The notes beneath the pieces were generated by a model that worked only from the letters and a program-made list of their open reading frames with translations, was not told the DNA's origin and ran no database searches. Below are positions 4,956 through 54,189 of a DNA stretch of 64,000 nucleotides, one piece after another; within the stretch, counting starts at the first letter, position 1, and every line of letters starts with the position of its first letter. Source of the DNA: a virus; the UHGV virus genome UHGV-1353844, one strand, 5' to 3'. Position numbers and translations under genes: made by a program.

Positions 4956-5020
4956 CAAGTCGTAAAGAGATTACGATGTAATCTCACTAAGGTAATATCT
5001 ATCTGAGAAAAAATTAAATA
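4956..5020 (-). promoter_or_regulatory. conserved early-promoter-like element, copy 1
   Basis: ~65-bp block near-identical to 40923-40990; minus-strand core AGATATTAC; palindrome GATTACGATGTAATC; ~27 bp upstream of start at 4931. Confidence 0.55.
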
Positions 5021-8949: not shown

Positions 8950-9834
8950 TTACTCGTTTGCTTTGATCGTCGCTTTCACCCAGGCTAACAACCCATCCGC
9001 TACTCGGTCGAGTGCAGTGGTCACCGCGTCTTCCAACTTAATAACGTTTTTGTAAGCGCGTTTAACCTCGGAGATTTCATCCCGATCGACTTTGTACATT
9101 TTATCTTTAATCTTTTCAGCTTCTTGGTAAATACCGCTGTAGCCAAAAAGTCCGTTTTTCGCGTTGCGGGATTCCATGATGTCTGCAATCTTACGCACCG
9201 CTTTTAATGCCTGGTGACATTCACGCTCGGTGAGTGCGGCAATAGTGTCTTTATACATCCCGCCGTTACCGATACCGAACGTAGTCTTACTTTTACCCAG
9301 TTCACCCTGCGTAACGACGTAGACGTTTCCTGCTAACGGATACGCAGTAACTTCCGTGCCCATCAAATTAGGGATATACCCCATCGCACGATGAATCGCT
9401 GAACTACTGGAGTAGCTCAATTCTTTTAACATCCCGTCTTCAACTTTACGGTGAACTTCTTTAGGACCGATAGCCATCGGGTTAGTCACAACCAGGAATT
9501 TCTTCGCAGCCGCCTCGAACCCGTTTACGGAATCGACTAACTTAAGACATTCTTTTAAATCAGGGACGTCTTCGTAACACACACGCGCACACCAGGTGCC
9601 CGCAGGAACCACTTTGGCAGAAAACGTTTTGACGTCTTTCAACCGATCTTCTAATCGGTCAGCGTCTTCTTTCATCGTTTTCATTTTGCCGGTGACGACA
9701 CGCTTAGCATCGTGTAATCGGTTGTTCACTAAACCGATAATTTCCAAATAGACCTGGTGGCCATACGAGGCAGAAGAGTCGGTGCGATCGCGAGACTCCT
9801 GTCCCACCTGTTGGCCAATCCAACTACGACGCAT
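8950..9834 (-). CDS. hypothetical protein, tandem paralog B (294 aa)
   Basis: ORF track; AAAGGA RBS; shares AYPLAGNVYVV / YSGIYQEA / KLEDAVTT and a Cys pattern with paralog A. Confidence 0.6.
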   Translation of the reverse strand: MRRSWIGQQVGQESRDRTDSSASYGHQVYLEIIGLVNNRLHDAKRVVTGKMKTMKEDADRLEDRLKDVKTFSAKVVPAGTWCARVCYEDVPDLKECLKLVDSVNGFEAAAKKFLVVTNPMAIGPKEVHRKVEDGMLKELSYSSSSAIHRAMGYIPNLMGTEVTAYPLAGNVYVVTQGELGKSKTTFGIGNGGMYKDTIAALTERECHQALKAVRKIADIMESRNAKNGLFGYSGIYQEAEKIKDKMYKVDRDEISEVKRAYKNVIKLEDAVTTALDRVADGLLAWVKATIKANE

Positions 9835-26194: not shown

Positions 26195-28480
26195 TTATTT
26201 ACCAGCTTTGTCTTTACCGTCGCCAGCAACATTACCTGCTACACCACCTTCGGTTTGTTTCTGACCGTTCTGTTCTACAGAAACGTTGTAAGCCAGTTTT
26301 TCTTCAACCAGTTTGGTGATGCCTTTAACCCAAATCAGACCAGTGATCGGGCAGTGGCAGATATGCGCGTTACGCGGCTGTACAGCCAGTTCTTTAGAAG
26401 TAGAACCGTTACGCTGGATGTTGATGTTGGTAACCATGATCGGAGACCAGAAGTGGTTACCCCAGTTCAGTACGCAGTAGGAACCATCGTCCGCAGTCGG
26501 AACTTTCAGGAACCATTGCAGACGACGAGTCCAGGAATCGTCAGCTGCGTTGTAGATACGCCAGCGGTCATCGTTGGTGGTAACGACTTCGTATTCATAA
26601 CGGTCGCCCAGCAGACGTTGGTCGCCCTGAACCAGCAGCAGCATAGATGCAGTCGGTTCGTCAGTTGCGATAATAACTTTCGGCAGAATGTCCGGATCAG
26701 CGGTCAGCAGGCGCAGTGCAGGAATGAAACGAGAATCCTGGATAGCCTGAGTTACCTGGCTACCGATACGCTGCAACAGACCCTGACGAGCGTTGATCAG
26801 CGCTTCTTTGGTATCCAGAGACTGAACAACTTCATCGACTTTGTAGTCAGACTCTTTGAACCACGGAGCAACCCAGTGACGGCCCAGACCACGGATGGCC
26901 GGTTTGTCCCACGGAGTGATCATCGCAGCGGCTGCGTTACGTACTGCTTCGGTGTAAGACAGCGTCTGAGTAATCGCCAGCTGTTCGTTACGGATGTTCA
27001 CCGCAGAGATCAGGTCGTCCAGACGTTCAGTGTCGTCGTATTCAACACCAACTGGAGACTTGGTCAGAATCGGAGAACCGTATTGCAGTTTGTAGTTTTC
27101 CTGTTCCCAAATTGGGTCAAGCAGCAGACCCTGGGTACGACGGTTTTCGTTGGTACGAGTACCATCGAAGCGCCAGCCCATCAGTTCGAGCTTCAGGCCG
27201 TCCAGGATAACTTTACCGGTGCCAGACTTGGTATCAACTTTGTTACCAGTTGCATCGTACAGACCTTCGATTTCCAGTTTGTGGCCGGAAATGTCTACTT
27301 TACCACCGAACTGGCCGCTGGTGAACAGGGACATGGTGATGGTGATAACGTAGCGCAGGGTGTAGGAGTTCTGACCCAGTGCTTGCAGAGCCGGAATAGC
27401 TGCACCAGTCCAGTCGGTGGTTTTCGCATTCAGAGAGAACGCGGTACGACGGAATTGCAGAACCAGTTCACGGCCGTCACCTTCAGCAGGACGCTGGAAG
27501 GTTGCGAACTGCATGTCACGAACGTGCAGTTTGATGAATTTACCCGCTCTCGCTTCTTCGGTCGGTTTACGTACAGAAATCAGCAGGCTGCCCAGAGCAC
27601 AACCCGGTGCGATTTCATCAGTTTCATCGTAACCTTCCTGAACGATACCCGGATGCGCAGACAGCTGGAACAGGTTCAGCGTGTCGTTTGCAAAGCTCAG
27701 GTAGTTAGTCGGATACGGAGGTACACGACCCAGGCGAACGGTTTCGTTCGGAACCAGTTCTTCGCTTACGAAGTATTCCTGGTTTTCACCGGTTTCCATT
27801 ACGTAAGGAACGATGTTGATCGCTTCGTCCTGGAGAACGGTGTGGTCAGTCAGTGCGTTGTGCAGCGGACGACGATGGTCTTCAACCACGTCTTTGCTCA
27901 GCAGCGCGTTCATGATACCGCGAGAAACGGTAGTCACTTTAGTACGTACGGTAATACCAACATCGTTGGTGTCAACGGTAATGGTCGGGAACAGTGTTTC
28001 AGCAAACTTGGACTGAGTTTCCAGAGCACGTACGTTCAGGGTCCAGGTCAGGCCCAGGTTTTTGTCGTAGTCTTTGTTGCTATAGTATTCCTGAGCAACA
28101 ACCATGCGCTCACGACCCCAGTCACCACCTTGCGCACCAGGGATACCAATATCCAGGTTATACTTGCTGTGGAATTCCGGCTTAGCGTATTCCTGGGCAA
28201 CACGTTCTTGCAGGTCTTTACCGTGGTTAGCTGCGCCCAGAATCATTGCGGAGGCGACAGTCGCAGCATGAGACATTTTCTTGCCGCCAAAAGCGTTGGC
28301 ATAGTGCTGTGATGCTTCGTCACGCAGAGCGCCAAATACTTTTGCGTTGCTACGTACGGACTCGCCTGCAACAATCGTATTCCACATTTCGCTGGCGGTG
28401 TTGTTGCCGATGACGTTTTGGGCCAGACTAGTACCGGCTTCTACGAGTTTCTCTAAATTAGAGATTCGGGTATCTTTCAT
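26195..28480 (-). CDS. putative major capsid protein (761 aa, phiKZ-like size class)
   Basis: Strong host-optimal codon bias (CTG, CGT, GGT, ACC, GAA); size typical of jumbo-phage capsid proteins; N-terminal AGE|S and AQE|Y motifs; terminator 26157-26178. Product is inferred, not searched. Confidence 0.5.
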   Translation of the reverse strand: MKDTRISNLEKLVEAGTSLAQNVIGNNTASEMWNTIVAGESVRSNAKVFGALRDEASQHYANAFGGKKMSHAATVASAMILGAANHGKDLQERVAQEYAKPEFHSKYNLDIGIPGAQGGDWGRERMVVAQEYYSNKDYDKNLGLTWTLNVRALETQSKFAETLFPTITVDTNDVGITVRTKVTTVSRGIMNALLSKDVVEDHRRPLHNALTDHTVLQDEAINIVPYVMETGENQEYFVSEELVPNETVRLGRVPPYPTNYLSFANDTLNLFQLSAHPGIVQEGYDETDEIAPGCALGSLLISVRKPTEEARAGKFIKLHVRDMQFATFQRPAEGDGRELVLQFRRTAFSLNAKTTDWTGAAIPALQALGQNSYTLRYVITITMSLFTSGQFGGKVDISGHKLEIEGLYDATGNKVDTKSGTGKVILDGLKLELMGWRFDGTRTNENRRTQGLLLDPIWEQENYKLQYGSPILTKSPVGVEYDDTERLDDLISAVNIRNEQLAITQTLSYTEAVRNAAAAMITPWDKPAIRGLGRHWVAPWFKESDYKVDEVVQSLDTKEALINARQGLLQRIGSQVTQAIQDSRFIPALRLLTADPDILPKVIIATDEPTASMLLLVQGDQRLLGDRYEYEVVTTNDDRWRIYNAADDSWTRRLQWFLKVPTADDGSYCVLNWGNHFWSPIMVTNINIQRNGSTSKELAVQPRNAHICHCPITGLIWVKGITKLVEEKLAYNVSVEQNGQKQTEGGVAGNVAGDGKDKAGK

Positions 28481-30699: not shown

Positions 30700-30725
30700 G
30701 GGGGTGGTAGCACACCCCCTTTTAT
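30700..30725 (+). terminator. intrinsic terminator (GGGGTG...CACCCC family)
   Basis: Hairpin followed by TTTTATT; same stem as hairpins at 31031 and 31367. Confidence 0.55.
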
Positions 30726-30728
30726 TAG

Positions 30729-30902
30729 TTAGTAGCGTTCACTCCTTTTTTCAGTGATTATCTGTGTGAAACGGTTGGTTGATGGTTTTAATCGTTTATT
30801 CGCACCGAGTTGACTATACTCGTAGATACGTTGCTGTAAATTGGTTTTTGCTGCATATTGTTCTGCAAGCATTTTGTCAGTAAAGTAGTAACCATTGTTC
30901 AT
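30729..30902 (-). CDS. small hypothetical protein (57 aa)
   Basis: Track ORF shortened to M14, where AAAGAGGG lies ~10 nt upstream; sits between structured RNA modules. Confidence 0.4.
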   Translation of the reverse strand: MNNGYYFTDKMLAEQYAAKTNLQQRIYEYSQLGANKRLKPSTNRFTQIITEKRSERY

Positions 30903-30937
30903 GGTATAAGCCCTCTTTGTAGGGTGATTAAAGAAAT

Positions 30938-31055
30938 CCATTACGTTTCCGTAATGGTGCTGTAAAAGGTACGCTGCACCAACAGCGTACCTTGCTTTAA
31001 CTTCTCTTTGGAAAAGTTAAAGCGTAAAAAGGGGTGTGACAGCACCCCTTTTTAT
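30938..31055. other. four-hairpin structured intergenic module 1
   Basis: Consecutive hairpins at 30938-30957, 30968-30991, 30995-31022 and 31031-31048 followed by T-run; homologous to module 2. Confidence 0.55.
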
Positions 31056-31060
31056 TACAC

Positions 31061-31246
31061 CTACGACCACCAACTCGGCAGGTTACTGTACGAAGCTTTA
31101 CGCTTCACAGTCCCACAGCTGGGCTGTGGTCCAGGGGCAGTAATCAGACCACGCATGGCGTAGTCGTTCATGTGTGCCTTGAACCTACTTTCCCTAAACT
31201 GTGTTAATTTCGTTTGTTTTAAAACTTCCTTACGTAAATCAGGCAT
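31061..31246 (-). CDS. small hypothetical protein (61 aa)
   Basis: ORF track; GAGGT 8 nt upstream; flanked by four-hairpin modules. Confidence 0.35.
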   Translation of the reverse strand: MPDLRKEVLKQTKLTQFRESRFKAHMNDYAMRGLITAPGPQPSCGTVKRKASYSNLPSWWS

Positions 31247-31276
31247 TTTGATACCTCACTTAGTGTCTTAATGTTA

Positions 31277-31395
31277 GGCTAACAGTTCGTTAGCCGCCTA
31301 AGTAGGGACTGCCTATACAGTCCCTACTGCTTTATCTTCTCTTTCGAAAAGATAAAGCTATGATAAGGGGTGTGTCACCACCCCTTGTTTTTTTA
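31277..31395. other. four-hairpin structured intergenic module 2
   Basis: Hairpins at 31277-31295, 31302-31327, 31330-31357 and 31367-31384 followed by T-run; hairpin 3 differs from module 1 by compensatory changes (aac/gtt vs atc/gat). Confidence 0.55.
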
Positions 31396-31554
31396 TCAGT
31401 TACTTCTCCTTTCAACTATCAACTGGGTGTTTCTTGGATAAGCAACTTTGGGCTGAGTTAACGTTGGTTGCGCTATTTCACTAACCCTACGTTGAAATTC
31501 GAGCTGTTTTACGGACAACTCGTTTAACCTTTGAAACAACTGTTCATGTTTCAT
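31396..31554 (-). CDS. small hypothetical protein (52 aa), not in ORF track
   Basis: Hand-translated MKHEQLFQRLNELSVKQLEFQRRVSEIAQPTLTQPKVAYPRNTQLIVERRSN; GGAG ~9 nt upstream. Confidence 0.3.
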   Translation of the reverse strand: MKHEQLFQRLNELSVKQLEFQRRVSEIAQPTLTQPKVAYPRNTQLIVERRSN

Positions 31555-31598
31555 GAACTTTTCTCCTATGTTGAAGTTGCGAAAATAAATAAAGTGTA

Positions 31599-31624
31599 CC
31601 CCTAATCCCGAAAAGGATTAGGGG
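31599..31624 (-). terminator. intrinsic terminator
   Basis: CCCCTAATCC-cgaaaa-GGATTAGGGG; A-rich upstream on plus. Confidence 0.6.
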
Positions 31625-31630
31625 TTGCTT

Positions 31631-32446
31631 TTATTTAATCGCTACGTATTGAACATGACCACATTCCTTACATTGCACGTTGGCTTGCGGGAATGTTAGG
31701 CCGGTTAAAGGAACACGGATTCGATACTGTGCACCACATTCTTCACAAACAAAATCGTGTTCTGGATAAACACGACCTTTCAATTTCTCATCCTTCCTTA
31801 ACGTTTCAGCCAGGAAATGCATGGCTCCTAACGCTTCATTAATCTGCTGTTCCCATTCACCGTCTAACGGATATGCGAACGCTCGAATCAACGTTTCCAC
31901 CATCTCCGGTTTATTGCTCACGTAGACGTGTTTCAATTCAAACTCTACGCGTTGTAGACCGAACAGCACACGTGCAGTTACCGTTACATTATCTAACGTT
32001 TGTGCAAACGCAACGGGATTATCATCACCGTACATTGCGAATAACCCAGCACGTTCGTATTCGATATCGCTCCACTCGATTAGTTCTACAGATTTAATCG
32101 CTTCCGCAATCTCAGCTTTACCGAACGTTTCATGTTCCAATAATCCGACGATAACTTCATTCAACGATTTCAATTGCTGTAAACGAATCACAGGATCGGT
32201 ATTCACGATAAGCAAACGATGCATTCTGGATTTCAACCAGTTAATCGTTCCTTCTACACCACCCCCAAACGAGCAGATGCTTATCACTTCAGGTTCACGA
32301 AGGATAAGAGTGGATTTTCCTGCTGCCGTACTCAAGTAGAGTTTAAAAGACTTATCGCTGGACTCTGCAACGATGGCAATGTCTTCAGTTGGAACGAAGT
32401 TTTCATTGCTCAGCCCACGCGGAAAATAATCTTTAATAGTAATCAT
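31631..32446 (-). CDS. hypothetical protein with C-terminal zinc-ribbon (CxxC...CxxC)
   Basis: ORF track; C-terminus FVCEECGAQYRIRV...QCKECGHVQY; GGAG RBS; terminator 31599-31624. Confidence 0.6.
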   Translation of the reverse strand: MITIKDYFPRGLSNENFVPTEDIAIVAESSDKSFKLYLSTAAGKSTLILREPEVISICSFGGGVEGTINWLKSRMHRLLIVNTDPVIRLQQLKSLNEVIVGLLEHETFGKAEIAEAIKSVELIEWSDIEYERAGLFAMYGDDNPVAFAQTLDNVTVTARVLFGLQRVEFELKHVYVSNKPEMVETLIRAFAYPLDGEWEQQINEALGAMHFLAETLRKDEKLKGRVYPEHDFVCEECGAQYRIRVPLTGLTFPQANVQCKECGHVQYVAIK

Positions 32447-32477
32447 CTTTTATGCTCCAATTAATAAAAAAATTAAG

Positions 32478-32493
32478 GGCACCCGAAGGTGCC
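32478..32493 (-). terminator. intrinsic terminator (UUCG loop) after lipoprotein gene
   Basis: GGCACC-cgaa-GGTGCC preceded by AAAAAAATTAA. Confidence 0.55.
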
Positions 32494-32500
32494 TTATACA

Positions 32501-32671: not shown

Positions 32672-32735
32672 AAATGAGTATTACGTAATTCTCTCACCTA
32701 AGTAATATATATCTGAAAATATTTTAATTAAAACA
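32672..32735 (-). promoter_or_regulatory. conserved early-promoter-like element, copy 3
   Basis: Divergent copy (ATTACGTAAT palindrome, core TATATATTAC) upstream of lipoprotein gene. Confidence 0.5.
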
Positions 32736-40257: not shown

Positions 40258-40899
40258 TTAAATGGATGCAGCGAATTGTTTTACAGACGCAGCCATCGAA
40301 CCATTAAACAGGACGAATGTACACTCCTCTTCATGGTCCTTACTATAAATCAATGGTAGGATTTTAAAGCTATCCATAGGTCCTTCACTTATTTCTAACA
40401 CACGTGGAATAGAGCGCATCTCTTCGAAAAGTTCAACAATCGTTTCCATAACCGCTTCTGCCGAATCCTTCGCGATTTCAAACAGTAAATCTTTCTGTTT
40501 CGGCGCGATTAAATGGAAGAAACATACGGCGACGAATCTTCCGTTATCTTTCTCACACAACGCAACATGGGCATCAGTAAACGCATGATATTTTTCACCA
40601 CTGAATTCGCGCATACCGACATCACCGTCTGTACGTGGATTAGCCATCTGTTTTGAGAAAGCTTCTAATTTTTCGCTGTCGATTTCTTTAAAGACGAACT
40701 CACGAGAGTTAACGGTTAGAGATTCTTTCTCTAACCCTTCAAATTTCTTGTCGTAAGACAAACGTAGCCAAGTAGAAATAGCAACCACTTCTACAGGATT
40801 TAAATCCAGCTCTTTGGCATTTGGAGCAACTAAGGTCGCGCCTTTGCTTTCTAAAGTTACAACACTATCAACAAAATCAGTTAAATTAATGCGGCTCAT
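40258..40899 (-). CDS. hypothetical protein (~213 aa), downstream of early-promoter-like element
   Basis: Track ORF shortened to M20 (MSRINLTDF...) with AGGAG RBS; conserved element 40923-40990 upstream. Confidence 0.6.
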   Translation of the reverse strand: MSRINLTDFVDSVVTLESKGATLVAPNAKELDLNPVEVVAISTWLRLSYDKKFEGLEKESLTVNSREFVFKEIDSEKLEAFSKQMANPRTDGDVGMREFSGEKYHAFTDAHVALCEKDNGRFVAVCFFHLIAPKQKDLLFEIAKDSAEAVMETIVELFEEMRSIPRVLEISEGPMDSFKILPLIYSKDHEEECTFVLFNGSMAASVKQFAASI

Positions 40900-40922
40900 G
40901 TTATTTCTCCTAAACGTAATAA

Positions 40923-40990
40923 ACAAGTCGTAAAAAAGATTACGATGTAATCTCACTAAGGTAATATATATCTGAAATTATTTTTAATCG
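40923..40990 (-). promoter_or_regulatory. conserved early-promoter-like element, copy 2
   Basis: Near-identical to copy 1; minus-strand core TATATATTAC; same palindrome; upstream of gene starting at 40899. Confidence 0.55.
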
Positions 40991-41009
40991 AAAAAAAAAG
41001 AAAAAGAAA

Positions 41010-41030
41010 TCACCCCGCGATGCGGGGTGA
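41010..41030 (-). terminator. intrinsic terminator after head-protein paralog 1
   Basis: TCACCCCGC-gat-GCGGGGTGA preceded by long A-run. Confidence 0.55.
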
Positions 41031-41052
41031 TTCTACGCTAAATAATCAACGA

Positions 41053-42315
41053 TTATTTAGACTTTTCGTACGCTGCGATACCGGCGCTGATATAACCGTT
41101 AACACCGCTAACCAGGTTTTTCTGAGTAGAAGCAACAACCTTCTCGCACAGGGATACTGCGCCGCGAATGCTGTTAACATAGCGACGTGCAACACGTACG
41201 CCTTCAGTCAGTTCTGGTTTTTCATCGATCTTAACGTTATCGATTTCTTTCAGCAGTTTCTCGATAGACTGAGCGAACTTCTCACGAGCCTGCTCGGTCT
41301 TACGGTATTCGAGAACGTTCTTCTCAATCTGTTTGCCCAGATCGGTGAAGAAGCTGTTCAGTTTAGCCAGTTCGCTTACAGACGGAGTTTTCACGCTGGT
41401 TTCAACAGAGTTTTCTGCTTCAACGTGAGTGAAGCTAAAGCCACCATCTTCATCGAAGTGGGTCTGCATAACCATGTTGCCCAGACGGAATTCTTTGTCG
41501 CCGTCTTCTTTAGAAAGCGCAGCAAATTCAGCACGCAGTTGCTCAGCCTGAACACCATTAGCTTTGGATACGCCTGCAACCAGAGCGGTACCAGAAGCCA
41601 GCAGTGTCGGAACGTGTTTGCTGTAGAAAGAAGAAACACGGCTCATCGCGTCTTTCAGGCGCGGTACATCGTTACCAACGAATTTACCGTCAACTGACAG
41701 GCACTTGATGAAACCACCAGAGATTTCATCTTTCTTCTGTTTGCCCAGCTTACGAATAGCTTCGTCGTATTTCTTCGCACGACCCTGGATAGATTTACCC
41801 TGGTTGTGGAATTTCAGCCAACGATCTTTCAGTTTGCGGCCTTGCTCTTTCAGCCATTCCCAGAAACGTTTCAGGAAGGCTTTAATGTCATCCCACAGGG
41901 ATTCACGAGCAACCTGACGACGGTTACGAGCGCCGTAGGATTCGTGAGCGACGGAGGAACGGTGTTCGAAGTTCCAGCGAGAACGGATAGATTCCTGAGC
42001 AACATCCAGCGCTTTAGCAGCGTCGTCCGGCATGTCTTCTTCAGCATCCATCGGGTCTTCGCCATCTTCAGCACCTTCGCCGTCAGCGGAAGCCTGAGCT
42101 TCGTCCAGAACGTCCAGCTGCGCATCGGTTTCGTCGCCGTCTTCCGCCAGCAGCTCTGCGTCAGCGTCCAGCGCTTCGATCGGTTTAGTGTCGTGCTCGA
42201 TATCAGCCAGAGTACCTTCGATAGACTCTGCTGGCAGCTCAATACCATCTGGAACGACAGTAGAGTTCGCTTCCATTGACTCACGAGCAATTTTGTTTTT
42301 GTAGAAATTCGCCAT
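41053..42315 (-). CDS. abundant virion (head) protein candidate, paralog 1 (420 aa)
   Basis: Strong optimal-codon bias; acidic N-terminal region with repeated A-x-E|S motifs (ARES, AQES, AHES); conserved termini MANFxK... / ...AGIAAYEKSK shared with paralog 2. Confidence 0.6.
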   Translation of the reverse strand: MANFYKNKIARESMEANSTVVPDGIELPAESIEGTLADIEHDTKPIEALDADAELLAEDGDETDAQLDVLDEAQASADGEGAEDGEDPMDAEEDMPDDAAKALDVAQESIRSRWNFEHRSSVAHESYGARNRRQVARESLWDDIKAFLKRFWEWLKEQGRKLKDRWLKFHNQGKSIQGRAKKYDEAIRKLGKQKKDEISGGFIKCLSVDGKFVGNDVPRLKDAMSRVSSFYSKHVPTLLASGTALVAGVSKANGVQAEQLRAEFAALSKEDGDKEFRLGNMVMQTHFDEDGGFSFTHVEAENSVETSVKTPSVSELAKLNSFFTDLGKQIEKNVLEYRKTEQAREKFAQSIEKLLKEIDNVKIDEKPELTEGVRVARRYVNSIRGAVSLCEKVVASTQKNLVSGVNGYISAGIAAYEKSK

Positions 42316-42331
42316 TTTAAGCTTTCCTCTA

Positions 42332-42352
42332 AGGGGAGCGTTTCGCTCCCCT
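42332..42352 (-). other. stem-loop between the two head-protein paralogs
   Basis: AGGGGAGCG-ttt-CGCTCCCCT; no clear U-tract, possibly a processing or attenuation site. Confidence 0.4.
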
Positions 42353-42395
42353 GATGATTTATTTCAAGAACTGTTCGGAACCGTAAACCTAAGTA

Positions 42396-43667
42396 TTACT
42401 TAGATTTTTCGTAAGCACCGATACCAGCACCCAGGTAACCGTTCAAACCGCTAATTACGGTGTTAGCAACATAACTAACGGCACGGTTCAGGGTCTGGTA
42501 GTTCTTAACAGACTGGTCAGCAGCTTGGCGTGCATTACGCAGACCATCCCACTTGCTTTCGTCTTTTTCGCTGTTCAGCGCGTTAGCAGCTTTCTCAGCG
42601 GCCTGTTGCAGTTTTGCAATCTCTGCATCGTAAGCACGGAAGTCTTTCAGTACAGCTTCGAAGCCTTTACCGATAGATTCCAGAGAAGAAGCAGCGCCAG
42701 CCATTTCAGAAACAGACGGAGTTTTCACGTCTTTATCGTCAGAGGCATCGCCAGTGCTCATGAATGCAACAGCGGTAAATTTGTGACCGCCAGCCAGTTC
42801 TTTAGTACCGGACTGAACGTATGCGTTACCCGGCAGAGCCAGAAGTTTGGACGCATCGCCGTTTTCAAAGTTCGGCAGGTTATGCAGTTTAGAAGCTGCT
42901 TTACCGAACAGTTCTACCGGCTGATCGCCACGCATTGCTTTGAATGCTTCGTCATCGCCTTTGGTTACAGCAGTAACAGCTTCACCAGCTTGTTTTTCCA
43001 GTGCGCTGATAGCACCTTTAGCTTTACCAGAGGTTACTTCTTTCGCGATAGCGATAGAGCCAGCTGCATCGAATTTACCTTCAATGGACAGCTTAGTAAT
43101 GAAACCACCGGAGATGGTATCATTTTTCTGTTTGCCCAGCTTGCGCAGCATTTCCTGATATTTCTTCGCACGTTTCTGTGCGGTCTTACCGACGTTGAAA
43201 TATTTCAGTTTCAGGTCTTTGATCTTCGCAATCACTTCTTTACAGAACTGAATGAAACGCTCGTAAAGACCTTTCAGGGTTTCTTTCCAGCCTTCCTGCG
43301 CAGCAGCAGTCATGCCACGGCCACGGCGATAGGATTCGCGAGCCAGTTTGGTGCGTTCCAGGTTCCAACGACGTGCGATGGATTCCTGAGCCACTTCTTG
43401 CAGGGCAACCGCTTCTTCCGGCATTTCTTCACCGTTAGCAACGGCTTCTTCCGCCTGATCGATAGCGTCTTCAGTACGCTCAGTATCGGCGGCCAGAGTT
43501 TCACCGTCGGTTTCCAGCTGTTCGAGCTGACCGTCGATAGAGGCTACGTCTGCAAGCTGGACGTCCAGGTTCTCTTCTGCCGGTTCAACGTTGCTGATAC
43601 CGTCGATTACTTCATCGGCCGCTTCCATTGATTCACGAGCGGCGCGAGTTTTTGCGAAATTTGCCAT
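42396..43667 (-). CDS. abundant virion (head) protein candidate, paralog 2 (423 aa)
   Basis: Same architecture and termini as paralog 1; AAGGAAA RBS; palindrome GGTTATATAACC upstream. Confidence 0.6.
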   Translation of the reverse strand: MANFAKTRAARESMEAADEVIDGISNVEPAEENLDVQLADVASIDGQLEQLETDGETLAADTERTEDAIDQAEEAVANGEEMPEEAVALQEVAQESIARRWNLERTKLARESYRRGRGMTAAAQEGWKETLKGLYERFIQFCKEVIAKIKDLKLKYFNVGKTAQKRAKKYQEMLRKLGKQKNDTISGGFITKLSIEGKFDAAGSIAIAKEVTSGKAKGAISALEKQAGEAVTAVTKGDDEAFKAMRGDQPVELFGKAASKLHNLPNFENGDASKLLALPGNAYVQSGTKELAGGHKFTAVAFMSTGDASDDKDVKTPSVSEMAGAASSLESIGKGFEAVLKDFRAYDAEIAKLQQAAEKAANALNSEKDESKWDGLRNARQAADQSVKNYQTLNRAVSYVANTVISGLNGYLGAGIGAYEKSK

Positions 43668-43726
43668 TTCGTTTATTTCCTTTGGTTATATAACCCAATT
43701 ACACGCCCCTAGAATGAGGGGCCCCC

Positions 43727-44287
43727 TTAGGGACGTGCGATTTTCAAAAACACTGCTAACGACGAGATCATGTCGGACAACCCGTTCGGGCGTGTCATCC
43801 AGCGTGCCAGCAGTTCATGGTCTGCATAAGATAAAAGACGTTTGCTACACTCAACAGACTGGTGAGCGGAACCCATATTACGTACAGTACCCCGGCGACC
43901 AAACGCAGCAGCAAGAAGACGCGCACCCAATGAGCCCGTCTGTTCAACGTTCTTCGTATTGCGAACATCATTCATGTACGACGACAGCAATACGGACCAC
44001 TGTCCTAACGTCACGGTGCGTCGTTTACCATCAAGCAGGAAGGCTACGCTTTCGTTATAAAACGTATTAAAGGTAAATCCGACCTGCGGATATTCGTCAT
44101 ATAATACCTGCTGCACAGAGTCAGCAGCGAACAGACGAAAATACGGTAATACAACCGCACACGCTTCCAGCGTTTTGTGAATAAGCTCGTCATCGTGTGT
44201 GTCGATTGGGTTTTTTGATAAAATCGACATATAGGTTTTAATGCGCTCTACGGCCACATTAAAATCGGGACTATCGTGCTCAAACAT
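43727..44287 (-). CDS. hypothetical protein (186 aa)
   Basis: ORF track. Confidence 0.55.
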   Translation of the reverse strand: MFEHDSPDFNVAVERIKTYMSILSKNPIDTHDDELIHKTLEACAVVLPYFRLFAADSVQQVLYDEYPQVGFTFNTFYNESVAFLLDGKRRTVTLGQWSVLLSSYMNDVRNTKNVEQTGSLGARLLAAAFGRRGTVRNMGSAHQSVECSKRLLSYADHELLARWMTRPNGLSDMISSLAVFLKIARP

Positions 44288-45250: not shown

Positions 45251-46357
45251 TTAAAGAACTGGCTGTGCGCCAGAGCGATACGCTTCAATGATTTTGTTCA
45301 CATCGGCGCTACCGGACTTCGCTTTGCTGAAATCGGATTTATCAAGTTCCTGAGAACCGTTCTGACCACGAGTATAAATAGTAACGCGGTTCCACGCGGT
45401 GTCCACTACCACGTAATAGACGGTTAAGGTGTCTTTGAAGACACGTTGACGAATATTGAAATCGTCAAACTCACCGCCTAGCTGGGCAGTCAGGCCGTCG
45501 ATAGTGTCTTGAGAAACCACCATAACAGAAGAAGCGTTATTAATAGACGGTGCCAGCGTCAGCAAGCCAGACAGCCAGTTGCCGTTTTTCTTCTCCATCA
45601 TCTTACGATAGTAACCTGACTTATCGCGATAACGGTTCTTACGGTATTCTTCTACCAGGTCGTTACAGAACGCAATGTCTTTAACATAGCTCAGTGCACC
45701 TACACGCGCACGCAGCCAACGTTCCCAGAACGTTTTCGTCTGGTCGCTGAATGCAATCAGGGTTTCAATCTGCTCAGTCGGAAGAGACTTAACGTCCAAA
45801 CGTAAACGCATTGGAAGTTCGACTTTATTACCGTCACGTTCAAACGTTACAGAGAACATTTTCCCGTTAGACAGCCCTTCCTGATCGAACAGTTGTTTAA
45901 TCGGGTCTGCTTTACCACCGGTAACGGAACCTTTGGATTCCTGTGCGACACGGCGGGTGGATTCACCCACAGCAATGCCGATTTTATCGTATGATGGTAA
46001 TCCGAGGCGGGAAGATTCGCCGACTGCCAGTGCTGCTAAGCGTGAGCCGCTACGCACTGCGTTATCGAGTGCGCTACGACGGGTACTTACTTGATCTAGC
46101 GTACCGATAATATCAACGTCAGGCACACCCGTTAACAGCGAGATTGCAGTAAGTTGGTTTCCTGCCAGCAAAACTTGGATTTTCTCCAGAATTCCCGGAA
46201 GGTAATCTAAACCCAGCAGGCTTTGTTCGACTAAGGTAATGTGCTCGTTATAGAGCACTGAGTTAAATTCCTCCGTCGACTCCGCACGCGAACGAAACAG
46301 CATGGGAAGTCTGGAGAGGAAAGAGACAACGCTTGTCTCAAACGTTTTTTCTAACAT
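45251..46357 (-). CDS. hypothetical protein (368 aa)
   Basis: ORF track; divergent from plus gene at 46384. Confidence 0.6.
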   Translation of the reverse strand: MLEKTFETSVVSFLSRLPMLFRSRAESTEEFNSVLYNEHITLVEQSLLGLDYLPGILEKIQVLLAGNQLTAISLLTGVPDVDIIGTLDQVSTRRSALDNAVRSGSRLAALAVGESSRLGLPSYDKIGIAVGESTRRVAQESKGSVTGGKADPIKQLFDQEGLSNGKMFSVTFERDGNKVELPMRLRLDVKSLPTEQIETLIAFSDQTKTFWERWLRARVGALSYVKDIAFCNDLVEEYRKNRYRDKSGYYRKMMEKKNGNWLSGLLTLAPSINNASSVMVVSQDTIDGLTAQLGGEFDDFNIRQRVFKDTLTVYYVVVDTAWNRVTIYTRGQNGSQELDKSDFSKAKSGSADVNKIIEAYRSGAQPVL

Positions 46358-50693: not shown

Positions 50694-52367
50694 TTAGTCG
50701 ACGAGTTTATTAAACTTCCCACCTTTTACCAGTGGGTTGTTCTTAGCCCGTTTCAGAATCGTCGCCAGCGCACCGGCGGCAGTTGTCCAGGACTTAATCA
50801 GTTCCGTCGTAAACGCAACAGAATCCCACACGTTTCGGTCTGGGTCCATCACGGTCATCGTCGTCAATTCACGACCAAAGCCCAATTCGTACAGATCTGA
50901 ACGTTGTGCTTCATCACGGAACGCTTGTTCCATCATCTGCCAAGCTTTGCTGTTCATACCAGAACGCGATTGGCGAGACATGTCTTTCAACTGGCTAACC
51001 ACTTTCTCGATCTGTTTCTCCACCACTTTGAAGCGGTCGAGAGACGTATCGGCCGGTCCTTTAGTAATCCCGCTACGGACTAACGTAATCAGACACGCTA
51101 ACAGTTCACGAGAATCACCGCTGGTAAAGCTCAGCTCCTGGCGCATAATTTCCATGTTAGCCGCAGAACCGAAATACGAGTTAACCCCCGCAGAAGCGAT
51201 GATGAATCCATTACCGAACTCGCGAGACGAATAGCCGATTAAGTCACGATCGGATTTCACCATAATCGTTGGTAGCGGTGCACCACGACACGATGCAAAA
51301 TCGGTTAACGCTATTTCAATTTCACCGTTAAGCAACGCCAGTGCTTGAACGATGCCCGTTGCACTAATGCGGTTTTCTTGATCCGTACCCAGCGTGCGGT
51401 CACCCGAGAAGTAATACGTCTTGAGGTCTTTTAACGACTGTTCTAGACGTTTTAACCCTGCGGAGAAGTTCTCCAGGTTTCTTCCCATCTGGCGGTAGAA
51501 CGCTTCGTTAGGAATGTTGACACCTGCTTTACGAACGTCCGCCGGTAAACCTTTGTACACTTCGTCACAAACCTGCTGACTGAATACCGCACAACCGATA
51601 TTAGTACGCAGCAACGTATCGAGGATATCGTGGATAACCTGCTGTTCATTCTGACGACGTTTCGTGTAGTCTTTAAACATCCCTACGAACGGAGAACGTC
51701 CCAGAGCTGCGCTAAGCTTATTCAACAGGTCTTCTGCGTTCATGTTCGTCAGGACTTCATCGGCCATCAGAATAGCCAATTCCAGGTTATTCAGTTCGCC
51801 GTCCTTCAGTCCCTTCGACGCGTCCATATACGCTTCTTTCAGCGCGGTAATTTTCAGACGTTCAATGAAAGGAACCGCATCGATCTTCTCTAAGAGCTTG
51901 TCACGATACTCGTCCCCATCCACGTCAGCAGCCCCTGCAAACGGTACAGCGTTACTGATAATCCAGTTCAGGATTTTCATAATCCCCATCATTACCATCA
52001 CGATAAGACTGATCTTACCGAAGTTTGCGTAAGACTCTAACGCGATGACGGTTTCTTTCTGATGGGTACGGCTGTAATTCGACGTCAGGATGCTTTGCAC
52101 TGCTTTTGGAATAGTACCCGGACGCAAAGATTCCGTCGCTACGGCAACGTCACGGTTTAGACCCGCTTTACGAACTTCACGAAGAATCGCTTCAATCTGC
52201 GCGATAATACGTGAACCGTAAATCAAATCGGCTTCGTTACGCTGCATGTAGAGGTTGAGCTGGCTGACAGAATCGATACGTTCTTCCATTCGCTGTTCGA
52301 TAATGGTTGGAAGTTCGTCGAGTTTCCATTGCGGCTGTGCAATGTTTGCTGTCATTTCCATGCTCAT
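50694..52367 (-). CDS. hypothetical protein (557 aa)
   Basis: ORF track; convergent with plus gene across terminator. Confidence 0.6.
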   Translation of the reverse strand: MSMEMTANIAQPQWKLDELPTIIEQRMEERIDSVSQLNLYMQRNEADLIYGSRIIAQIEAILREVRKAGLNRDVAVATESLRPGTIPKAVQSILTSNYSRTHQKETVIALESYANFGKISLIVMVMMGIMKILNWIISNAVPFAGAADVDGDEYRDKLLEKIDAVPFIERLKITALKEAYMDASKGLKDGELNNLELAILMADEVLTNMNAEDLLNKLSAALGRSPFVGMFKDYTKRRQNEQQVIHDILDTLLRTNIGCAVFSQQVCDEVYKGLPADVRKAGVNIPNEAFYRQMGRNLENFSAGLKRLEQSLKDLKTYYFSGDRTLGTDQENRISATGIVQALALLNGEIEIALTDFASCRGAPLPTIMVKSDRDLIGYSSREFGNGFIIASAGVNSYFGSAANMEIMRQELSFTSGDSRELLACLITLVRSGITKGPADTSLDRFKVVEKQIEKVVSQLKDMSRQSRSGMNSKAWQMMEQAFRDEAQRSDLYELGFGRELTTMTVMDPDRNVWDSVAFTTELIKSWTTAAGALATILKRAKNNPLVKGGKFNKLVD

Positions 52368-52821: not shown

Positions 52822-54189
52822 TTAATCGACGTTAAACATGGCAGATGCGATACGGAGGTCATTCGACATATACTTCCCGATAGCGCGCTGATAATCCACC
52901 GCAGCGCGGTCACGACGCCCTTTCGGTGTCAGCGTCTTCCAGATAAACTGATACAGGTTATCTTTGTCTTTAACCGTAAGGAGAATTCGATCAATTACCG
53001 CGATACCATCCAGAATACGTTTACGTTGCTCGTTAGCCGCTTTCGTGTTTTTGTCTTTGATGGTATTCAGTTCTTCTACCAGCGTACGGCGCATCGCTTC
53101 AAAACGTTCCTGCGGCGGATCGTAGATGGTGTTATCTGGGTCGTTCAGAATCATGCCAAACGTAACAGAGATAACCGGAAGAATCGGAATGGCGGCTTGG
53201 GCAATCAGCGCAGTCACACGGAACAACTCAATCGTCAAATGGACACCCATGTTCATATACGACGAGTTACGCAGTAGATAGAACGGGCTGGTTTCCATTT
53301 TGTACAGCGCGGAAGCTAAGTACGGGGCCGCACCGAAGCGGGCAGCGAAGTCGTCAGCAGCACGTTCCCAGGTACGGTTTGCAAAGCCTTGACTACCGGT
53401 AATGAACGGACGGTCTAGCAGCAAATCTGTTACCAGATGCATGTAGACGTTTTCTTTCTTGTACTCAGTGCAGATGGTCTCAGGCTGATTCACTTTCGTG
53501 TTCAGCATTCGTTCAACGTCTTTAACCACACGTAAACGAACAGCTGGGTCTTCGCTTTCCATGATGCGGTTAGCCGCAGCGTCTGCCAGTAAATCCGTTA
53601 CCACGGTACGCATTAGCGTACGGAAGTAATAATAAACGTGCCCGACTTCGTGAAGGATTACCGAAGCAACTTCCAAATCGGTGAGCTCCAGTTTCTCCAA
53701 CAGCACCGGAGTCAGGTAAAGCGGGGAACTGACTTTGCTCAAGTCGCCGCTGATTTTCGCACTGGAATCGTCAATGCTGCTGTTCAGTTCGTTTTCTTTA
53801 ATAAACTTACTGTACATGTCCAGGTCTTTATTGCCTGCGTACAGTGCACGCGCCATTGACGCAATGACCGGACTGTTCGCGTCCAGCTTAGGCGGTTCTA
53901 TGCCTGCGAAGGCAACGTCGAATAATCCGAGTTCGCTACCGTTCTTAAAGTTAATGCTAATGCCGTTGGTTTTAAATACCCAATCAGAAACGCCAGAGCT
54001 CTCGTAACCGGCCGGACTGAAGTCTCCGGCTGCACGAAATTTAGCAATAATGTCTGCCAGTTCTGCGAGTTTCTTTTTATCTTGGAATTTAATTGATTCT
54101 GCGGCTACAACCTTTGCATCCGCAACTGATGCAATGTGATTTTGCCAGTATCCCATTTGTGTTTCCTTTTGAGAAATTACATTACCCAC
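52822..54189 (-). CDS. HExxH zinc-metallopeptidase-like protein with hydrophobic segment
   Basis: Motif VASVILHEVGHVYYYF; downstream acidic WERAADDF; hydrophobic stretch LTIELFRVTALIAQAAIPILPVISVTFGMIL. Confidence 0.55.
   Translation of the reverse strand: MGNVISQKETQMGYWQNHIASVADAKVVAAESIKFQDKKKLAELADIIAKFRAAGDFSPAGYESSGVSDWVFKTNGISINFKNGSELGLFDVAFAGIEPPKLDANSPVIASMARALYAGNKDLDMYSKFIKENELNSSIDDSSAKISGDLSKVSSPLYLTPVLLEKLELTDLEVASVILHEVGHVYYYFRTLMRTVVTDLLADAAANRIMESEDPAVRLRVVKDVERMLNTKVNQPETICTEYKKENVYMHLVTDLLLDRPFITGSQGFANRTWERAADDFAARFGAAPYLASALYKMETSPFYLLRNSSYMNMGVHLTIELFRVTALIAQAAIPILPVISVTFGMILNDPDNTIYDPPQERFEAMRRTLVEELNTIKDKNTKAANEQRKRILDGIAVIDRILLTVKDKDNLYQFIWKTLTPKGRRDRAAVDYQRAIGKYMSNDLRIASAMFNVD

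Follow-up and report, generated by a model that had tools for sequence, protein, structure and literature searches.

Two tandem genes for predicted, proteolytically processed internal head proteins in an SPN3US-like jumbo phage genome

In the 64,000-nucleotide (nt) stretch of the UHGV virus genome UHGV-1353844 analyzed here, referred to below as the window, positions 41053-43667 are filled exactly by two long open reading frames (ORFs) on the minus strand with 80 nt between them (ORF list); 54 of the 59 window ORFs lie on this strand. The pair very probably encodes the orthologs of gp53 and gp54 of phage SPN3US, i.e., the two major internal head (ejection, "E") proteins of what is an SPN3US-like jumbo phage of the chimallin type. 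The identity and the biology of such proteins are already known: they have been published for a close relative, and the proteins are annotated as "internal head protein", including a sequence identical to that of the gp54-like protein, which is deposited as DAH65958.1 ("MAG TPA: internal head protein"). The value of the assignment is therefore mainly one of annotation, in that it assigns the window to a jumbo phage that is SPN3US-like (Seoul-like, chimallin-type). The two genes are as follows.

41053..42315, minus strand: gp54-like internal head (ejection) protein precursor gene; 420 residues, 46.7 kDa, isoelectric point (pI) 5.1
42396..43667, minus strand: gp53-like internal head (ejection) protein precursor gene; 423 residues, 45.6 kDa, pI 5.2

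The products are 36% identical from end to end (BLASTP, E 2e-60), which bears out an earlier note on this DNA, made from the letters alone, where two paralogs of about 420 residues had been described. The note had also pointed to shared termini. The N-termini, MANFYKNKIARESMEA and MANFAKTRAARESMEA, do have a tag of 15 residues in common, and the C-termini, GVNGYISAGIAAYEKSK and GLNGYLGAGIGAYEKSK (in longer context ...NGYISAGIAAYEKSK and ...NGYLGAGIGAYEKSK), are likewise alike; the string AARES, which had been given for both proteins, is found in one of them, while the other has IARES.

Both proteins match PF12699 (phiKZ_IP, the internal head proteins of phiKZ-like phages), with scores of 204.3 bits for the gp54-like and 247.7 bits for the gp53-like protein at a cutoff of 27, and the match spans profile positions 2-387 of 387. 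The 420-residue protein is 63-66% identical to SPN3US gp54 and the phiEaH2 counterpart (63% for SPN3US gp54 itself), and for the 423-residue protein the identity with SPN3US gp53 and its counterparts is about 70-73% (about 70% for SPN3US gp53), compared with 36-37% across the pair. Because each copy is closer to its ortholog than to its neighbor, the duplication would predate the divergence of the Salmonella, Erwinia and Cronobacter phages in this clade, i.e., the tandem arrangement appears to be ancient. At E ≤ 1 the gp53-like protein had no match among PDB sequences. The gp47-like protein (50694..52367), which is the positional analog of phiKZ gp86, was considered as a hidden third paralog and rejected (hhalign probability 0.3%).

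The genomic setting points in the same direction. In the SPN3US and phiEaH2 records, as in the window, a dihydrofolate reductase gene is followed by three small genes, the two "internal head protein" genes and virion structural genes; for SPN3US the order is dihydrofolate reductase ... gp55, gp54, gp53, gp52, gp51, gp50, with the same gene lengths. The order around the pair is shared by SPN3US, phiEaH2, Caitlin, Kwan, Machina and CR5, and the protein is present in all 64 matching phage records, nearly always at two places per genome. The gene just upstream of the pair (43727..44287) matches the family of the vertex-binding protein gp91 of PhiKZ. Nucleotide identity of the region to the 240-kb phages phiEaH2 and SPN3US is about 74-75% (megablast), and the ORF at 26195..28480 encodes a PhiKZ-type major capsid protein (PF25620, 692 bits). 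The suggestion in the earlier note that this is a jumbo phage is thus confirmed, and its proposed comparison with SPN3US head proteins returned syntenic orthologs, gp54 and gp53, at 63% and 70% identity.

In SPN3US, the head's three most abundant proteins are the capsid protein and gp53 and gp54 ("paralog family A", pfam12699); the mature C-terminal parts of the latter two are found in purified DNA-filled virions at an estimated more than 600 copies each (PMC5694885). In protease-deficient particles the two build an inner T=1 shell beneath the T=27 capsid, and this shell is remodeled upon maturation (PMC7552025). The protease is gp245 (MEROPS family S80), which cleaves after A-x-E with a preference for Ser at P1' and which, as a recombinant protein, cleaves gp53 in vitro (PMC10052503, PMC7411985). 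Cuts mapped by mass spectrometry (MS) are found after ARE-12, AQE-95 and AQE-125 in gp53, giving the mature N-terminus GWKETLKDLFER, and after AQE-124 and ARE-137 in gp54, giving the mature N-terminus SLWDDIK (PMC10052503 Table 2). These two proteins are accordingly described as abundant internal ejection proteins from which propeptides are removed (PMC10052503, PMC5694885, PMC7411985). The PF12699 paralogs of phiKZ are likewise proteolyzed; several of them enter the host along with the DNA, and gp93, once injected, associates with the early-infection (EPI) vesicle (bioRxiv 10.1101/2024.03.24.586471). In Goslar, one PF12699 protein is present in about 2,000 copies and is injected, and the role of the family is called unknown by the authors (bioRxiv 10.64898/2026.04.21.720040). 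The family is of current interest; its molecules are packaged by the thousands together with the DNA and delivered into the early-infection vesicle.

The N-terminal regions of the window proteins are acidic, as the earlier note had remarked, with 38 D+E against 12 K+R among the first 140 residues of one paralog and 33 D+E against 15 K+R in the second; the rest of each protein is net basic. Within the first 140 residues the motif A-x-E-S occurs four times in the 420-residue protein (0.23 expected) and three times in the 423-residue protein (0.13 expected), which none of 5000 shuffles reaches, and it is absent from the remaining ~280 residues of each. All seven of these motifs, out of the 18 present in the 59 window ORFs, as well as one A-x-E-G, lie within the first 138 residues, which is the arrangement expected of a protease substrate. 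Cleavage at these positions would give the products listed here (a slash marks the cut).

41902..42315, minus strand: gp54-like predicted propeptide, residues 1-138; 15.1 kDa, pI 4.1, net charge -26
gp54-like predicted cuts: ARE-12/S, AQE-108/S, AHE-125/S and the maturation cut ARE-138/SLWDDIK
41056..41901, minus strand: gp54-like predicted mature protein, residues 139-420; 31.6 kDa, pI 9.4, net charge +10
43293..43667, minus strand: gp53-like predicted propeptide, residues 1-125; 13.7 kDa, pI 4.2, net charge -19
gp53-like predicted cuts: ARE-12/S, AQE-95/S, ARE-111/S and the maturation cut AQE-125/GWKETLK
42399..43292, minus strand: gp53-like predicted mature protein, residues 126-423; 31.9 kDa, pI 9.3, net charge +10

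The predicted propeptide pieces are 12, 83-96, 16-17 and 13-14 residues long. All five MS-mapped gp245 sites of SPN3US are kept, including both maturation sites: those of gp53 are found at the aligned positions ARE-12/S, AQE-95/S and AQE-125/GWKETLKGLYER, and those of gp54 correspond to AHE-125/S (AQE-124 in SPN3US) and ARE-138/SLWDDIK (ARE-137 in SPN3US), with the same P1' contexts. The differences are small, i.e., the third gp54-like site reads AHE rather than AQE and the propeptide is one residue longer. The candidate sites ARE-111/S of the gp53-like protein and ARE-12/S and AQE-108/S of the gp54-like protein are also conserved. Among seven SPN3US-like phages the gp53-like sites are kept with a variable middle residue, and all four gp54-like sites are found in every one of 130 homologs, the identities of which reach down to 42%; the third of these sites is AHE in 69, ARE in 45 and AQE in 16 homologs, and the last has A, V or G at P3. 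Fixed positions with a free middle residue would be the expected pattern if the motif is recognized by a protease rather than conserved for structural reasons. The fit to the cleavage preference of phiKZ-family prohead proteases, proposed in the earlier note, therefore holds at the level of mapped sites, and its view of the pair as processed internal head proteins is supported by the full-length PF12699 match, by orthology and by site conservation. By analogy with the orthologs, cleavage at the predicted sites is inferred to occur in this phage as well, such that the mature ends of the two most abundant cargo proteins can be predicted to the residue.

The C-terminal AYEKSK of both proteins (41053-41070 and 42396-42413) also holds an A-x-E, three residues from the C-terminus, which is probably not a cleavage site. 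The hexapeptide is kept in the closest relatives; in Caitlin, Kwan and CR5 the corresponding end is AYGKK, AYAKG, AHAKG, AYDKK, AYGNSK or AYDKSKS.

Codon usage is strongly optimized in both genes, as noted earlier, with the two lowest effective numbers of codons among the 59 ORFs (32.0 for the gp54-like gene, rank 1, and 33.4 for the gp53-like gene, rank 2). The fraction of E. coli-type optimal codons, taken from the Ikemura and Sharp-Li sets, is 0.84 and 0.835, compared with a window median of 0.565. Leucine is encoded by CTG in 89% of cases in the pair and in 27% in the other genes, and the codons AGA, AGG, CGA, CGG, GGA, GGG, ATA, CTA and CCC are not used in the pair at all. The sole gene with a comparable bias is the one at 26195..28480, which encodes the major capsid protein. 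The codon bias, together with the abundance of the orthologs, suggests that the pair is highly expressed.

An AlphaFold2 model of the internal head protein (predicted local distance difference test score, pLDDT, 83) displays a long helical bundle with a small beta subdomain. Among BFVD entries it has 101 matches at E ≤ 0.001, all from phiKZ-like or Chimalliviridae phages, with template-modeling (TM) scores of up to 0.83, i.e., the predicted fold agrees with that of virion proteins of phiKZ-like phages. The mature part of the gp54-like protein is modeled as a helix-rich bundle with a small beta subdomain, in which residues 216-330 constitute the variable part.

Four further homologs of SPN3US protease substrates are encoded in the window, each of which keeps an A-x-E at or near the mapped position.

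52822-54156, minus strand: gp45-like substrate; AAE-20/S (SPN3US site ASE-20)
50694..52367, minus strand: gp47-like substrate; A-x-E-S at 79 and 111 (SPN3US AVE-75 and ALE-111)
45251-46357, minus strand: gp50-like substrate; AQE-140/S (SPN3US ATE-127)
26195..28480, minus strand: major capsid protein (gp75 homolog); AQE-131/Y (SPN3US ATE-130)

A genome that is 97-98% identical over the window, NZ_CP134650.1, encodes an S80 protease that is 81% identical to gp245 and keeps both the catalytic Ser153 and the autocleavage site AQE-203/S.

The phage belongs to a lineage that has no match above 80% identity in the phage-isolate collection but is common, as 218-230 kb contigs or "plasmids", in assemblies of Salmonella, E. 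coli, Shigella and Enterobacter, and in metagenomes. Such contigs from these bacteria also encode exact copies of the proteins. Two complete relatives are filed as circular plasmids, NZ_CP134650.1 (E. ludwigii, 222,441 bp) and NZ_CP173450.1 (E. coli 98232, 221,873 bp). The lineage thus differs from SPN3US in its nucleotide sequence (about 74% identity), its genome size (about 222-227 kb) and its origin, mostly from bacterial isolate assemblies and metagenomes; it matches the "Seoul-like persistent jumbo phages" described from bacterial assemblies (bioRxiv 10.1101/2024.12.31.630880; see also PMC12768965). The exact gp53-like protein is filed under a record of Enterobacter ludwigii, and the PLSDB "plasmid" of E. 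ludwigii has only 92% DNA identity; recoding was considered here and rejected, since the two are different strains and records.

Identity between the window and NZ_CP134650.1 is 97-99% almost throughout but falls at 40.26-43.5 kb, where the gp54-like gene is 73-80% and the gp53-like gene 89-94% identical and the gp55-like gene is unaligned. The latter gene (40258..40956) is replaced in relatives by a short or unalignable gene, and an independent metagenome contig displays the same pattern of divergence as NZ_CP134650.1. At least four classes of gp54-like alleles, at about 97-100%, 78-80%, 76% and 72% identity, are found in the lineage (database clusters). The synonymous divergence (dS) is 0.3-0.7 in the block, compared with 0.01-0.08 in the flanking genes, and the ratio of nonsynonymous to synonymous divergence (dN/dS, Nei-Gojobori) is below 1 everywhere, ranging from 0.05-0.07 in the gp54-like propeptide to 0.31-0.54 at residues 216-330. 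Three divergence hot spots interrupt the 97-99% identity of the window to its relatives, among which NZ_CP173450.1 was compared as well. The largest is the interval 40260-43500; the other two segments, 9000-9800 and 30700-32500, are unaligned or 66-87% identical to NZ_CP134650.1 and are further mosaic or replaced segments.

A raised dS (10-20 times that of the flanks) with a dN/dS below 1 in every segment (maximum 0.54) speaks against positive selection as the cause of the hot spot, and is better explained by import of old alleles through recombination than by fast evolution in situ. The anti-jumbo-phage sensor Avs5 was also considered as a driver and rejected, because its trigger is the early protein JADA and not a PF12699 protein. 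The simplest reading of these sequences would be that old alleles have been recombined into the block, where the assembly and cleavage module is strictly constrained and the middle of the injected domain is looser. This contrast between a frozen propeptide with its sites and a diverged cargo separates a strictly constrained assembly module from a cargo module whose variation is either free or driven, and the natural sets of gp54-like alleles are available for experimental swapping. A stronger proposal, which we regard as unlikely, is that the gp53-gp54-gp55 block is an exchangeable allelic cassette of Seoul-like phages, the polymorphism of which is maintained by host-side selection, e.g., through recognition of the injected cargo by immunity or through host-specific interactions at the early-infection vesicle. 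It would account for genomes that are 97-99% identical and yet carry gp54-like alleles only 72-80% identical to that of the window along with unrelated or truncated gp55 genes, and for the concentration of variation in the predicted injected mature domain while propeptide and cleavage sites are fixed. If true, it would offer the first functional handle on PF12699.

Transferred to the window, the experiments with the orthologs suggest the following course of events. The precursors would be made late, in amounts comparable to that of the capsid protein, and would co-assemble inside the prohead, where the S80 protease (gp245 ortholog) would cleave after A-x-E and so divide each propeptide into several pieces. 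What remains in the DNA-filled head would be the basic mature proteins (about 32 kDa), with more than 600 copies of each, and these would be injected with the DNA. Beyond these experiments, we propose that it is the acidic propeptide that makes the precursor compatible with a prohead still free of DNA, and that it bears a targeting tag, i.e., that the conserved N-terminal tag may be a prohead-targeting signal like the capsid-targeting sequence of T4. The loss of about 19-26 net negative charges per molecule could convert an acidic assembly form into a basic, DNA-compatible cargo, and removal of the propeptide may in addition free space for the 220-240 kb genome.

Several points weigh against this assignment. 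Cleavage, copy number and injection are all transferred from orthologs at 63-70% identity. The 64-kb window holds no homolog of the S80 prohead protease gene (tblastn, best E 5.7), and the gene is seen only in the close relative NZ_CP134650.1. A-x-E by itself shows no significant enrichment within the first 140 residues (P = 0.07-0.17, shuffles) because these regions are rich in Ala and Glu, so that the argument rests on A-x-E-S and on positional conservation. The "inner body" was not seen in recent high-resolution work on phiKZ or in Goslar (bioRxiv 10.64898/2026.04.21.720040). Finally, N-terminal fragments of phiKZ gp93 and gp162 stay bound to the capsid wall (PMC11297242), which implies that the notion of a discarded propeptide is perhaps only partly true.

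The last point leads to an alternative that we consider possible, if somewhat doubtful, namely that the N-terminal fragments 13-95 and 13-108 stay on the inner capsid surface as a fiber-like cement between capsomers and that the C-terminal domains alone serve as internal or ejected cargo, with two functional products per gene; it would complement the ejection-protein explanation and is partly compatible with it. In phiKZ, residues 14-84 of gp93, which start at the E13/S14 cut, and residues 19-134 of gp162 line the hexamer boundaries (PMC11297242). MS of mature SPN3US particles yielded unusually many peptides from the gp53 propeptide region, but propeptide peptides of most SPN3US substrates were undetectable in the same particles (PMC10052503). 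Within the lineage the gp54-like propeptide is the most conserved part of the protein (94% compared with 76% for the mature part; dN/dS 0.05-0.07), but the AlphaFold model packs residues 32-77 as a long helix on the bundle rather than as an extended S-shaped arm. That the pair are true scaffolding or core proteins, wholly degraded and expelled and neither retained nor injected, is highly improbable. The multiple cleavage sites and the co-production with capsid protein are scaffold-like, and the gp53/gp54 T=1 shell of protease-deficient SPN3US vanishes as a structure upon maturation (PMC7552025). Mature gp53 and gp54 are nevertheless among the three most abundant proteins of the DNA-filled SPN3US virion, at more than 600 copies each (PMC5694885), and PF12699 relatives are injected into host cells (bioRxiv 10.1101/2024.03.24.586471, 10.64898/2026.04.21.720040); in the window proteins, the predicted cuts all fall within the first 138 residues and A-x-E-S does not occur in the remaining ~280.

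Two other explanations concern the mature domains and the codon bias. The top ~30 Foldseek matches in the PDB are nearly all ClyA-family alpha-pore-forming toxins (SmhB, AhlB, MakA/B/E, NheA, HblL1 and ClyA), the model has, as noted above, the form of a long bundle of helices plus a small beta subdomain, and injected phiKZ gp93 co-purifies with host membrane proteins and localizes to the EPI vesicle (bioRxiv 10.1101/2024.03.24.586471). A ClyA-like, membrane-active protein that helps to build the lipid EPI vesicle after injection would fit these data, but none of the Foldseek matches is significant (best E 0.07, TM 0.14-0.24), and hydrophobic stretches are absent, with a maximum Kyte-Doolittle 19-residue mean of 1.03 compared with about 1.6 for a membrane segment. 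On these grounds membership in the ClyA family was rejected, and the membrane-active role as a whole appears very unlikely. We also assign a very small chance to the view that codon bias and raised G+C content reflect the foreign origin of a recombined block rather than high expression. The block is mosaic, with dS 10-20 times that of the flanking genes, and the G+C content is 0.50 at 42-44 kb compared with about 0.46 elsewhere. The bias, however, is toward classic enterobacterial optimal codons with every rare codon avoided, the only other gene so biased is the major capsid gene, which lies outside the mosaic segments (99% identity), and in abundance the orthologs are second only to the capsid protein in the virion (PMC5694885).

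As internal head (ejection) proteins, the pair can be compared with several known systems. The window proteins have both the N-terminal tag MANFxKxxxARESxE and the C-terminus AYEKSK in common with SPN3US. With phiKZ (gp92-97, gp162 and gp163) and Goslar (gp53-gp58) they share the PF12699 family and a predicted helix-rich fold, as well as an organization in tandem paralog clusters that adjoin genes for the vertex complex. Processing of the N-terminal region by an S80 protease after x-x-E, the presence of many copies in the head and entry into the host together with the DNA would also be shared, as judged by analogy for the window. Differences are found in the number of paralogs, which is eight in phiKZ and six in Goslar (with different dominance) compared with two co-dominant ones in the window clade, and in the protease motif, which is S/A/G-x-E for the phiKZ protease gp175 and A-x-E in the SPN3US type; at the fold level, sequence identity to phiKZ-type relatives is about 12-17%. 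phiKZ gp86, a component of the vertex-binding complex (PDB 8y6v chain G), differs in being a low-copy capsid-bound protein rather than bulk cargo; at 11% identity no Pfam relationship to it was found, and its window counterpart, the gp47-like protein, has no profile similarity to the paralogs.

The internal proteins (IPs) of phage T4, i.e., IPI, IPII and IPIII, work in a similar way: they are abundant basic proteins that are packaged and injected with the DNA, they carry a short conserved N-terminal targeting peptide that is removed by the prohead protease (gp21) after x-x-E, and their genes lie within a variable region. In contrast to the 125-138 residues predicted here, the T4 propeptides are about 10-20 residues long, the proteins are small (8-21 kDa), and IPI* has a known function (anti-restriction). 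A Pfam scan of the window proteins at E ≤ 0.01 gave PF12699 and one sub-threshold COG6_N match, with no match to the T4 IP families, and the likeness to T4 would therefore be functional only.

The two genes form a unit closed by a strong intrinsic terminator, and conserved hairpins lie upstream of each gene.

41007..41033, minus strand: intrinsic terminator; 12-bp G+C-rich stem and T run, 20 nt past the gp54-like stop codon
42332..42352, minus strand: intergenic hairpin; 9-bp stem and AAA loop without a T run, directly 5' of the gp54-like ribosome-binding site TAGAGGA
43702..43737, minus strand: hairpin of conserved sequence; overlaps the stop codon of the gp52-like gene upstream
43680-43700, minus strand: conserved palindrome GGTTATATAACC, after the 43702-43737 hairpin and just upstream of the gp53-like ribosome-binding site

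A hairpin with a T run is found at the place of the terminator in SPN3US, phiEaH2, Caitlin, Kwan, Machina and CR5, with differing stem sequences. The position of the intergenic hairpin is likewise kept in all seven related phages, where it is followed by (T/C)AGAGGA; its sequence differs, which implies compensatory change. It is possibly an element for mRNA 3'-end formation, processing or stability, a leaky terminator or a terminator for a phage RNA polymerase. The 43702-43737 hairpin and the palindrome, by comparison, are nearly identical in seven phages that are otherwise about 75% identical. Between 40200 and 44400 no sigma-70-like promoter was found, compared with 4.5 expected from shuffles, which fits transcription by phage-encoded RNA polymerases.

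A candidate for a phage promoter is the motif TCAGATATATATTACC, which with at most one mismatch occurs three times in the window (0.42 expected), at 40960-40975, 32701-32716 and 4991-5006, all on the minus strand. SPN3US, phiEaH2, Caitlin, Machina and others keep the copy that follows the gp54-like terminator, and two of the three window copies precede variable segments.

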